Below are positions 2,258 to 4,435 of a stretch of DNA of 64,000 nucleotides, in pieces. The notes under the pieces are model-generated. The model did no database searches and had not been told where the DNA came from. It was given only the letters and a program-made list of their open reading frames with translations. The stretch lies in the NCBI GenBank assembly GCA_048884965.1, contig JBHLQH010000005.1, forward strand, positions 110,157 to 174,156, written 5' to 3'. The DNA comes from Candidatus Thorarchaeota archaeon (GTDB lineage Archaea > Asgardarchaeota > Thorarchaeia > Thorarchaeales > Thorarchaeaceae). The position numbers and the translations under genes are program-made. Positions within the stretch are counted from its first letter, which is position 1, and each line of letters opens with the position of its first letter.

Positions 2258-4435
2258 TTGGAGATGGGTCCCAATTTGAAGAGAACTCACCGAAGCATTG
2301 TCTGTCTTTTCATTGTTGCACTAACAATGATGCCAAGCATTACATTTGCGACCGTACTAGCTCAGGCTGCTGAAGTGAACATTGATAGCGTTCGTGTTGA
2401 GGTGATTGTCCTACCGAATGGGAGGATCAATGTCACCTACTGGATGGAATTCACTGTAAAGAGTGGGTCTCTAGGTGGATTCGACCTATCAGGTATCCAA
2501 GAGAGTTCAATCTATGATCCTGCCCGTGCCTATGCAGATTATGATGGCACTCACTATCCTTTGGTTATTACACCTTTGGCAAATGGATATGGGCTTGACT
2601 GGACTCCTCGAACCCAAGAGGATGAATCCGTCCTCATTGTTTTTGGATACTTCAGTACTAACAGAATCATCGAAAAAACGACCGCAACTGTCACTCTTGA
2701 GGGATCAGGATCTACTGTCACTGGGGATTTTGGCGTTTTTAATTGGGCTCCTGTGCAATGGGAACAAGAGATAGGATATGAGAGTATCCGCGTTGTCTAT
2801 CCTATTATAATGGACCCCTCATGGATTACAGGAGAGGGTGGTATTACACCAGATGGAGCCGATTATGCAGGTTATGTTGTTGATTCTAGACAAGCTATTG
2901 AGGATTCTAACGGGAACTCTTGGGAGTATGATGAAGAGAACCTTTTGGCTTATCCTTCCTCCGCCAGTGCTTCACCTCGCAACTTTAGTCTAAGTCTTAG
3001 ATCCAACATCGTTCTCGCATATGACCACTTGCGGGTATTCCACTATACTAATTGGAGTTTCTATGAGCCCTTTCTTCAACCTGGCGCATTGTGGTACAGT
3101 ACTGAAGGATACATGAATGTGGATGCTGAAATCGAATTCGATGCTAGTATAGCTGTAATAAACATCGGTGATGGCGAACTCGAAGATGTTACTGTTACAA
3201 TGTCAGTTCCAGAGAATCTTACTTTGACTTCCGGGTCGACATCATACTATATTGGACTGCTGGATGGAGGAGAATATGTAACAGTAGAGTATTCTTTCAT
3301 TCCAGCAAATACTCCTCAAGTACTGACACTATCCTTCTTAGTATCCTCATCCGATTTGAATCAATCCCAATGGGTGACATTTACTTTAAGCATCTACGTA
3401 AGGGAATTCATCCCTCCCTTGATTCCACCTTCTTACCTCATATTTGGATTCGTAGGACTATGCGTGTTAGGAGTAGTCTATATCACTTATCGGAGGGTGA
3501 CCCGACGATATGGAGCAACATGGGAGATAGATGAAACAACGAGTGTCTATGAGAGTCCTGAGATAGGTATACAGACATTTGGCGAGCCTGGGACGGTCGC
3601 AGAACTGGATCCTATCGAGTCTGCTTTCTTTGTCAGTGCAAGTCGACAAAAGGTAGTATCTATGATTCTAATGTCGTGTGTCCGAAAGGGAGCTGTTCGA
3701 ATAATCTCAAGCGATCCATTGAAGCTGGTTGATACAGGAATCGAATTCGAAGATTTAACCTACTATGAACGGAAGTTCGTCGACGCAATAAGGGATAACC
3801 AACTGGACCCTGACAAGTTGGATGACATGCTTGAGGAATTAGCAGAGAAGGTCCAAGAGAAATCATGGAATGCCGATTTCGATGCTACTCGCGCACACCA
3901 TGATGAGATGGTCGACGGTGCTTGGAACGAGTTGGAATCCCAGCCAACCTTGGACGGTCGGACTGATTATTACTTCAATCAGCAATATCACGGAGGATGG
4001 GCTTGGTACTGGCTCTATATGCATCCCCATCATGACCGTGATCTTCCACGTACATTCACCCCTCCTGGTGGAACTATAGCAGCACCTCGTATCCCAGACT
4101 GGTTCAGTCAGATGGCGGAAGCTACGGGCAACGTTGTCACAGAAACTGGGCGCGTTATCGGAGATATTGGGGCAACAACTGCAAAAATAATGGGGAATGT
4201 AGCGAATACAATTGGTACCGTCTTCACTAATGTCGGTGAAATCGTACGAGCTCCTTTGAAGCCAATTCTTGAAGGCACAAGTCGCTGTGTATCACATGAT
4301 GCGTGTCACTCAGCATGTGTTTCGCATGATGCATGTCACTCCGCATGTCATAGCGCATGTCATAGTGCGTGTGTATGCCACAGTGCATGTCACTCCGCAT
4401 GTCATAGCGCGTGTGTTTCCGGAGGATTCAGATAG
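2258..4435 (+). CDS. Single-pass membrane protein (DUF2207-like N-terminus, Ig-like domain, TM, cytoplasmic domain) with Cys/His-repeat tail; candidate rSAM substrate
   Basis: Signal-like N-terminus, [15 protein letters not shown], Ig-like [38 protein letters not shown], tail (CHSA)n...CVSGGFR. Confidence 0.85.
   Translation: [725 protein letters not shown]
4286..4432 (+). repeat. Coding tandem repeat: CVSHDA x2, CHSA x7 (49 aa, 11 Cys, 9 His)
   Basis: 12-nt units TGY CAY (TCA/TCC/AGC/AGT) GCR read directly from the sequence. Confidence 0.95.

Follow-up and report, generated by a model that had tools for sequence, protein, structure and literature searches.

What becomes of a membrane protein that ends in a dense array of cysteines and histidines? 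The question is raised by the window studied here, the whole 64,000-nucleotide stretch of DNA that was analysed, from a Candidatus Thorarchaeota archaeon (contig JBHLQH010000005.1, positions 110,157 to 174,156 of the forward strand). On its plus strand, positions 2258 to 4435 encode a membrane protein of 725 residues, P0001, a call supported by 90 homologs, hydropathy and Atlas, with the start at TTG 2258 or a few codons later. The last 49 residues (677-725) and the stop codon, at 4286-4435, make up a Cys/His repeat tail, which is recognised from its sequence, from codon comparison across 24 orthologs and from the same architecture in relatives. Our analysis indicates that this tail is very probably the target of an adjoining radical S-adenosylmethionine (SAM) enzyme, P0002. 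More specifically, we propose that the tail is the substrate region of this enzyme, which joins a RiPP (ribosomally synthesised and post-translationally modified peptide) recognition element, or RRE, to radical SAM and SPASM domains, and that it would be modified in place on the whole membrane protein, a reading to which we give slightly better than an even chance. We favour it because the two genes are linked across lineages and are the only two shared, because a docking model joins their products and the tail is under strong purifying selection, because the tail is predicted to lie in the cytoplasm, the same compartment as an Fe-S/SAM enzyme, and because a sister family shows the same pairing and the enzyme CrpC provides a precedent.

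Is the repeat kept as a protein, or is it a recent product of slippage? The tail begins with codon 677 (TGT) at 4286 and closes with the stop TAG at 4433-4435, in the plus-strand open reading frame (ORF) 2258-4435. It contains 11 Cys and 9 His, arranged as seven CHSA units, two CVSHDA units and one CV unit (the source of a CVC irregularity), and it ends in ACVSGGFR. Four of the CHSA units are spelled tgt cac tca gca, tgt cac tcc gca, tgt cat agc gca and tgt cat agt gcg, and the remaining three tgc cac agt gca, tgt cac tcc gca and tgt cat agc gcg, so that they differ only synonymously and use the Ser codons TCA, TCC, AGC and AGT. All nine His lie in H-x-A (two HDA, seven HSA), and CX3D occurs twice, as CVSHD. 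In all of this, including the switching of Ser between TCN and AGY, the sequence bears out an earlier note on this DNA, whose quoted letters agree with the translated tail; its remark that Cys recurs every four residues holds approximately, most of the ten Cys-Cys spacings (6,4,6,4,4,4,2,4,4,4) being four, with two of 6 and one of 2 besides. As DNA the repeat is degenerate, and Tandem Repeats Finder reports a 30-bp unit in 2.1 copies (87% matches), a 12-bp unit in 2.9 copies (86%) and nothing else. Among 24 Thorarchaeota orthologs, codon pairs in the tail show 56.7% synonymous against 1.3% non-synonymous differences, and in the same orthologs the 45 codons upstream of the tail show 44% and 30%; single Ser columns of the tail mix TCN and AGY. 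Since synonymous change so far exceeds non-synonymous change and Ser codons of both kinds are mixed, the repeat is, on this codon evidence, maintained by selection on the protein and not by recent slippage, as the earlier note had held, and by the same measure strong purifying selection acts across all tail residues. Long ORFs in other frames or on the opposite strand also cross the repeat, at 4269-5711 on the plus strand and at 4227-4400 and 4310-4564 on the minus strand; these look like by-products of repeat composition, homologs backing only the 2258-4435 frame.

How widely is such a tail found? A search with the C-terminal half of P0001 returned 90 homologs, from Asgard archaea and many bacterial phyla, and in a scan of one genome per species at least 530 stretches encode a relative. 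Where the C-terminus is intact, most homologs close with (Ala-Cys-His-Ser/Asp)n, then Ala-Cys-Val-Ser and 2-4 further residues. Across 105 distinct tails, the Cys spacing is four in 797 of 967 Cys-Cys gaps, Ala precedes Cys in 958 of 1067 cases, His follows it in 773 and Val in 224 of about 1070, and the second position after Cys is Ser in 748 and Asp in 125. H-x-A accounts for 862 of 922 His, His is swapped for Val, Tyr or Asp in some units, and 97 of the tails terminate 4-6 residues past the last Cys. Thorarchaeota orthologs leave unit order and number unchanged, including the CVC irregularity, at an overall identity of just 56-69%, and Chloroflexota tails have a closely similar unit order with CVHDA (CX2D) replacing CVSHDA. 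The earlier note had named orthologs without the tail, or without its Cys/His periodicity, as the finding that would speak against it, and the orthologs keep both. Two of its finer suggestions fare less well. CX3D, put forward as a target spacing, is present in only 19 of the 105 tails, the Asp position being mostly Ser and most tails outside Chloroflexota reading ACH[SD]AC. The terminal GG-x-R, suggested as a signal, is not universal, with endings that include CVSGGAR, CVSGGAH, CVSSF, CVSRF, CAGSF and GGWG, though GGxR or GGGR recurs in a subset and in the sister family described below. One Thorarchaeota ortholog (L018) has an in-frame TAG at its positions 4370-4372, in place of a Glu or Gln of its relatives and 68 codons short of the end; beyond it the sequence for the tail is intact, and the TAG could be a sequencing error, the mark of a recent pseudogene or a variant.

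Which enzyme might act on the tail? P0002 (494 residues, positions 286-1770 on the minus strand) is encoded upstream of the tail gene and divergently from it. It carries a PqqD/RRE domain (PF05402), a radical SAM domain (PF04055) with CxxxCxxC at C153/C157/C160, and a full SPASM domain (PF13186). It scores below the cut-off of every NCBIfam family, the top matches being AhbD, NirJ2, MftC, ScmE and PqqE, and its closest solved structures are PqqE, SkfB, BlsE and CteB. In 74 of 83 loci, tblastn finds a full-length ortholog of P0002, RRE included, in the flank fetched with the tail gene (40-73% identity, 340-756 bits), with representatives in Thorarchaeota, Bathyarchaeia, Chloroflexota, Spirochaetota, Armatimonadia, Bacillota and others. 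All of the loci fetched are from metagenome-assembled genomes. Nine loci have no flank match; in six of these the contig stops short on the side in question, the genomes of L055 and L071 carry an enzyme ortholog on a different contig (E about 1e-130), and L080 has no match in its flank. The enzyme also adjoins the Odinarchaeota and Promethearchaeota homologs of the tail gene. In bacteria it mostly lies within about 100 nt downstream on the same strand, and in Thorarchaeota it is divergent and upstream. When all ORFs in the loci were clustered, the tail gene and the enzyme gene were the sole genes common to all lineages. P0002 is thus, as predicted from sequence and linkage, the obvious candidate modifier of the tail, and the earlier idea of radical SAM modification is in this respect supported by the pairing and by the docking model described below.

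P0001 runs from a signal peptide or anchor through an ectodomain, one transmembrane helix, a cytoplasmic domain and a linker to the tail, and the same hydropathy layout is seen in most homologs examined. The N-terminal hydrophobic segment (residues 14-32; 2297-2353, plus strand) has a Kyte-Doolittle mean of 2.13 over 19 residues, is preceded by basic residues, and is probably a signal peptide or signal anchor. The domain of about 360 residues that follows has CARDB and DUF11 matches at sub-threshold level only. The single transmembrane helix (residues 392-410; 3431-3487), identified by hydropathy, is followed by YRRVTRR, and the C-terminal 315 residues are predicted to be cytoplasmic by the positive-inside rule. 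Beyond the helix, AlphaFold2 (AF2) predicts a folded domain over approximately residues 445-600 (3590-4057), with pLDDT, the score on the predicted local distance difference test, above 90 for most of it. A linker rich in Gly, Thr, Val and Asn (residues 601-676; 4058-4285), marked by alignment gaps and low conservation, comes next; it is modelled as a long helix at pLDDT 40-70, varies among lineages and has only a sub-threshold match to Collagen_mid. The tail itself is modelled at pLDDT 40-48 as three short helices with breaks at the Val-containing irregular units, a low-confidence prediction.

RRE domains usually act by binding a leader, and such complexes have been solved. We modelled P0002 (43-row alignment) with residues 420-725 of P0001 (82-row alignment) in three runs. 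The interaction prediction score from aligned errors (ipSAE) was 0.85, 0.84 and 0.85, against 0.00 for the best control; the mark set for this score is attained by 58 of 80 solved complexes and by 2 of 110 mismatched pairs. Contact agreement in these runs was at least 27% and partner pLDDT at least 68. In the contacts predicted with confidence, the PqqD/RRE region of the enzyme (residues 57-136) meets P0001 residues 429-442, just past the transmembrane helix, and the contacts of lowest error involve enzyme residues 65-74, 105-109 and 128-132. Residues 429-442 (3542-3583, plus strand) are thereby, with conservation in support, a predicted leader-like RRE docking strand. Enzyme residues 352, 370-378 and 444 contact the P0001 helix that bears Trp537. 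Conservation is high at the contacts of the enzyme (L67 93%, N68 100%, T70 98%, D105 93%, N370 100%) and of the substrate (P434 95%, F441 76%, T440 66%, W537 100%), which fall among the most conserved non-catalytic residues of both families. W537 and D540 (3866-3877) are the sole invariant residues of the P0001 family outside the tail; the model puts W537 where the SPASM side of the enzyme meets P0001, and D540 is absent from the listed contacts. The model's good score may partly reflect likeness to the solved RRE-leader complexes.

What reaction would the enzyme catalyse? When the cytoplasmic domain, tail excluded, is used as a profile, 536 clusters at 50% identity are matched in both domains of life. 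The closer clusters carry Cys-His tails, and the distant ones (E 1e-16 to 1e-22) have, after a Gly-rich run, a His-free (Cys-Ala)n-GGGR; the tails of Promethearchaeota proteins are hybrids (CHSACVSCACACACAGGGW). An enzyme homolog lies about 100-150 nt downstream in 19 of the 30 Cys-Ala-type Asgard loci (L099-L128), mostly with 34-36% identity over residues 54-455. Seven other loci have no usable downstream flank, mostly through cuts at the locus end (in L120 the enzyme was found and the tail gene was not), and two Cys-Ala-type proteins picked by identity are on short contigs with no adjoining enzyme. Six catalytic-proximity positions have been described, which in CteB are F112, F152, T186, S210, H363 and Q364 (Precord et al., PMC10288494). 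Mapped through HMMER alignments and compared with three solved enzymes only, these positions read YTISSS in 43 of 43 enzymes of the Cys-His type and YTITQS in 16 of 17 of the Cys-Ala type, the references being YTFSQL in SkfB, a sactisynthase, SSISHA in PqqE and FFTSHQ in CteB. Because the two tail types have only Cys and Ala (or Gly) in common, and because their enzymes share four of the six catalytic-proximity residues together with the RRE contact residues, the conserved reaction is most likely, by analogy, centred on cysteine and would form a thioether to a nearby small residue. The earlier note had raised thioethers by way of PapB and its CX3D spacing; cysteine-centred chemistry is favoured here too, and the specific route is not, CX3D being rare and the enzyme scoring 95 bits against a PapB cut-off of 340.

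For concreteness, we can picture the following sequence of events. On membrane insertion the N-terminal domain would come to lie outside and the last 315 or so residues in the cytoplasm, as hydropathy suggests. The PqqD-like RRE of the enzyme would then dock on strand 429-442 and also contact the helix with the invariant Trp537, as in the complex model. The flexible linker would bring the (Ala-Cys-His-Ser/Asp)n tail to the active site, where the enzyme would act on the cysteines repeatedly. By analogy with sactionine- and ranthionine-type chemistry, the products would be Cys-to-carbon thioethers to an adjacent Ala, Ser or Asp, forming a ladder of small rings. The histidines would be left as a fixed array, possibly able to bind metal, and the product would remain on the protein, with no peptide released. 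Taken further, a processive enzyme may make a ladder of crosslinks in which up to nine imidazoles, along with any leftover thiols, are fixed as a metal-binding or redox array on the cytoplasmic face of a receptor-like protein, found from Asgard archaea to many anaerobic bacteria and distinct from known RiPPs and cofactors; this full extension we regard as conceivable, if fairly unlikely.

Several points weigh against modification of the tail by P0002. The topology of P0001 comes from prediction, and the sequence of P0002, which reaches no curated cut-off, does not name the reaction. The complex model gives the tail no confident position and does not place it in the active site, in keeping with its low pLDDT (40-48). 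Four Cys-Ala loci of one Asgard family, with tails ending CACACACVSCACACAGGGR, have no enzyme within 1.5 kb, and the comparison of six residues draws on three solved enzymes only. Finally, an array of Cys and His could hold metal or Fe-S clusters while staying covalently unmodified.

This last point leads to the strongest of the alternatives, in which the tail, as a metal or Fe-S module of metallothionein-like kind or a Cys/His zipper, is at no time covalently modified, the enzyme acting on some other site or substrate. Adjoining Cys-His pairs at i and i+4 would suit helical metal chelation, the three short AF2 helices broken at the Val units, low in confidence as they are, are of the kind it calls for, and the conservation of exact unit number and irregularities is in keeping with a defined fold around metal; many archaeal proteins rich in Cys are moreover predicted to bind metal cofactors (PMC13692751). 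Such a module would, however, leave unexplained both the near-obligate pairing with an RRE-radical SAM-SPASM enzyme across domains and the predicted docking of the RRE on P0001. The only other invariants, moreover, are W537 and D540, of which W537 sits at the predicted interface and not at a plausible modification site. We judge this alternative unlikely as a whole; metal binding as such, alone or alongside modification, is possible.

Might the chemistry be centred on histidine instead, with triceptide-like His-to-Ala (H-x-A) cyclophanes, as the earlier note had suggested, or with His-Cys crosslinks? Radical SAM enzymes are able to crosslink His, as in triceptides and dynobactin, which counts for this possibility, and the methyl group of Ala is a poor site for hydrogen abstraction, which counts against it. 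Of about 1070 Cys, 773 have His as the next residue, the H-x-A motif is indeed conserved (862 of 922 His), and there is a relevant case in HxsB/HxsC, which mature an H-x-S repeat protein (PMC13128918). The sister tails, however, are free of His, and indeed of any aromatic residue of the kind that triceptide aromatic-X-X rings require, yet they accompany a homologous enzyme with the same residues at four of six catalytic-proximity positions and the same RRE contacts; this makes His-Ala linkages less likely than cysteine-centred chemistry as the conserved reaction. Some units, too, have Val, Tyr or Asp instead of His, and P0002 scores 101.5 bits against the HxsC model, whose cut-off is 267.9. 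We consider histidine-centred chemistry decidedly unlikely. That P0001 is an oversized RiPP precursor, whose modified tail is cut off and released as a free peptide (in Thorarchaeota perhaps through a DUF885-like HExxH protein), is very improbable, for although it would account for a leader-like recognition strip followed by a C-terminal core, and although there is a HEYEH gene 46 bp downstream, with synteny across 20 Thorarchaeota loci, lineages other than Thorarchaeota have no conserved protease or exporter alongside the pair, bacteria carrying coiled-coil and transmembrane-winged helix-turn-helix (wHTH)-zinc-ribbon proteins instead, the 'leader' would have to span a conserved ectodomain, a transmembrane helix and a folded domain, and the DUF885-like gene stands at a variable distance with other genes inserted, unrelated neighbours being equally syntenic. 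Sites for c-type haem (CHSACH read as CX3CH) were set aside without a dedicated test, the tail being predicted cytoplasmic and the motifs overlapping.

How does modification of the tail in place compare with known systems? Literature searches on radical SAM enzymes with Cxxx repeats, on DUF2207, on the motifs and on PF27846 found no publication on this protein and enzyme pair. The nearest family in outline is TIGR04117 (Syntroph_Cxxx; PF27846, tSAM_targ_Cxxx_rpt), which likewise has Cys at each fourth residue in a C-terminal repeat and an adjoining radical SAM/SPASM gene, traits seen here in 797 of 967 gaps and 74 of 83 loci; both systems are in silico predictions without described chemistry. 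The TIGR04117 cut-off of 50 bits is not reached, the tail of homolog P0012 scoring 18.9 bits (E 0.0012) and P0001 residues 670-725 giving no match, and PF27846 appears on some homologs as a weak precomputed match. TIGR04117 is a 98-position model of a small protein, whereas the repeat here ends a membrane protein of 500-950 residues and has, unlike TIGR04117, an invariant Ala before and His after each Cys. We would describe the present system as a radical SAM/SPASM maturase with a Cxxx-repeat target that is fused to a whole membrane protein and carries an invariant His.

Of systems studied by experiment, CrpC/CrpA and the HXS antiphage system come nearest. A precedent in chemistry is CrpC of Methanococcus voltae, which installs small thioether rings, in motifs of 4-5 residues, in the large Cys-rich protein CrpA (PMC13692751). 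Like P0002 and P0001, CrpC and CrpA combine an RRE-radical SAM-SPASM enzyme with a large protein that has an N-terminal recognition part and C-terminal repeated Cys (PMC13692751). The differences are that CrpC belongs to TIGR04463, which is absent from the best 25 of 97 NCBIfam families for P0002 and so scores below 77.5 bits, and that CrpA has 17-residue repeats with C-x-x-Q/D, the words 'membrane' and 'histidine' being absent from the main text of the paper (PMC13692751). The maturases of sactipeptides and ranthipeptides (SkfB, AlbA, StsB, CteB, PapB, NxxcB) resemble P0002 in joining an RRE to radical SAM and SPASM or twitch domains and in acting on a Cys-rich core, to which correspond here the PqqD, Radical_SAM and SPASM domains and the 11 Cys of the 49-residue tail. 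The solved structures closest to P0002 include SkfB and CteB, and P0002 shares Y, T and S, three of the six catalytic-proximity residues, with SkfB, the sole, and indirect, pointer here to sulfur-to-alpha-carbon thioether bonds. P0002 nonetheless stays below the cut-offs of PapB (NF047865; 95.1 against 340 bits), StsB (109 against 625) and SkfB (77.5 against 300), the substrates of these enzymes are short secreted peptides, and CX3D, the PapB/freyrasin spacing, is not conserved in the P0001 family. In the HXS antiphage system, as proposed here, radical SAM enzymes mature a whole protein with short His repeats (PMC13128918). HxsA, however, is periplasmic after cleavage and has five H-x-S repeats and no Cys array, and it is served by two radical SAM enzymes and HxsD (PMC13128918); P0002 falls short of TIGR03977 (HxsC) at 101.5 against 267.9 bits, and the tail reads H-S-A or H-D-A, not H-x-S. 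Neither CrpA nor HxsA is described as a membrane protein, and neither has an Ala-Cys-His-x repeat. Also similar is the DUF2207-like (Cys-Ala)n-GGGR sister family, which shares the cytoplasmic domain, the architecture and an adjoining homologous enzyme with P0001, and differs in having Cys at each second residue, no His and the signature YTITQS in place of YTISSS.

Most of what is known of radical SAM maturases concerns short secreted peptides, and only recently have enzymes been shown to crosslink whole proteins, namely CrpA (PMC13692751, 2026) and HxsA (PMC13128918, 2026). The present pair is widespread, in at least 530 species genomes and both domains of life, its tail is extremely constrained and a concrete docking site is predicted. 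Once worked out, the chemistry would establish a new modification of proteins, and DUF2207-like membrane proteins, for which we know of no role, would gain a first clue to their function.

P0001 itself has no match to the Pfam DUF2207 models (PF09972, the N-terminal domain, and PF20990, the C-terminal domain). Among homologs, P0058 reaches 26.8 bits against a threshold of 24.4, and P0012 and P0062 remain below threshold. By Atlas features the C-terminal half of P0001 is nearest to DUF2207-like clusters (0.96) and to a DUF2207_C cluster (0.89). For the fold of the cytoplasmic domain, Foldseek gives no match in the PDB at E <= 0.001. VIA-align gives two matches that stand out and no others, GOLPH3 (3kn1; Z 6.9, 158 residues aligned, root-mean-square deviation 4.6) and Vps74 (2zih; Z 5.5), a weak hint, from the predicted model, of a GPP34-like fold. 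The source genome holds a single copy each of the tail gene, its cytoplasmic domain and the radical SAM enzyme.

Other genes around the pair differ between lineages. Between the enzyme and tail genes lies a small protein, P0003 (1803-2228, plus strand; probable start ATG 1830, giving 132 residues within a range of 132-141), which belongs to no family. It is present in 21 Thorarchaeota loci and in one bacterial locus (L083), with 64-78% identity among Thorarchaeota and 38% to L083, and its fold, a common alpha/beta sandwich with a best Z of 7.9 and many ties, is uninformative; from this distribution it appears to be a lineage-restricted accessory. Downstream of the tail gene by 46 bp lies P0004 (4482-5711, plus strand; 409 residues), a HEYEH protein that Atlas places as DUF885-like. 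It is syntenic in 20 Thorarchaeota loci and none elsewhere, at a variable distance from the tail gene. By Atlas structure it resembles Chloroflexota and Actinomycetota clusters (template modelling score 0.86-0.87), and its relatives are widespread without the tail and enzyme pair; it is probably not a core part of the system.

Bacterial loci add a coiled-coil protein of about 400 residues (47 of 57) and a transmembrane-wHTH-zinc-ribbon protein of about 165 residues (35 of 57), both absent from Thorarchaeota. The two follow the enzyme gene, for example at L082:10149-11984 and L001:11422-13410 and in 45 further loci, and the smaller has one or two transmembrane helices. P0003 and P0004 were considered as counterparts of these third and fourth genes and set aside, BLASTP and hhalign profile comparison showing no relation. 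PADLOC returns generic viperin-type radical SAM matches for P0002 and none for the other three proteins. Genes for a GHMP kinase and for a family 4 glycosyltransferase (GT4) are found upstream of the tail gene, on its strand, in 16 and 22 non-Thorarchaeota loci, respectively; the examples examined are from Chloroflexota (L030:4859-6966 and about 20 loci), and these neighbours may reflect lineage synteny or a link to envelope sugar metabolism.

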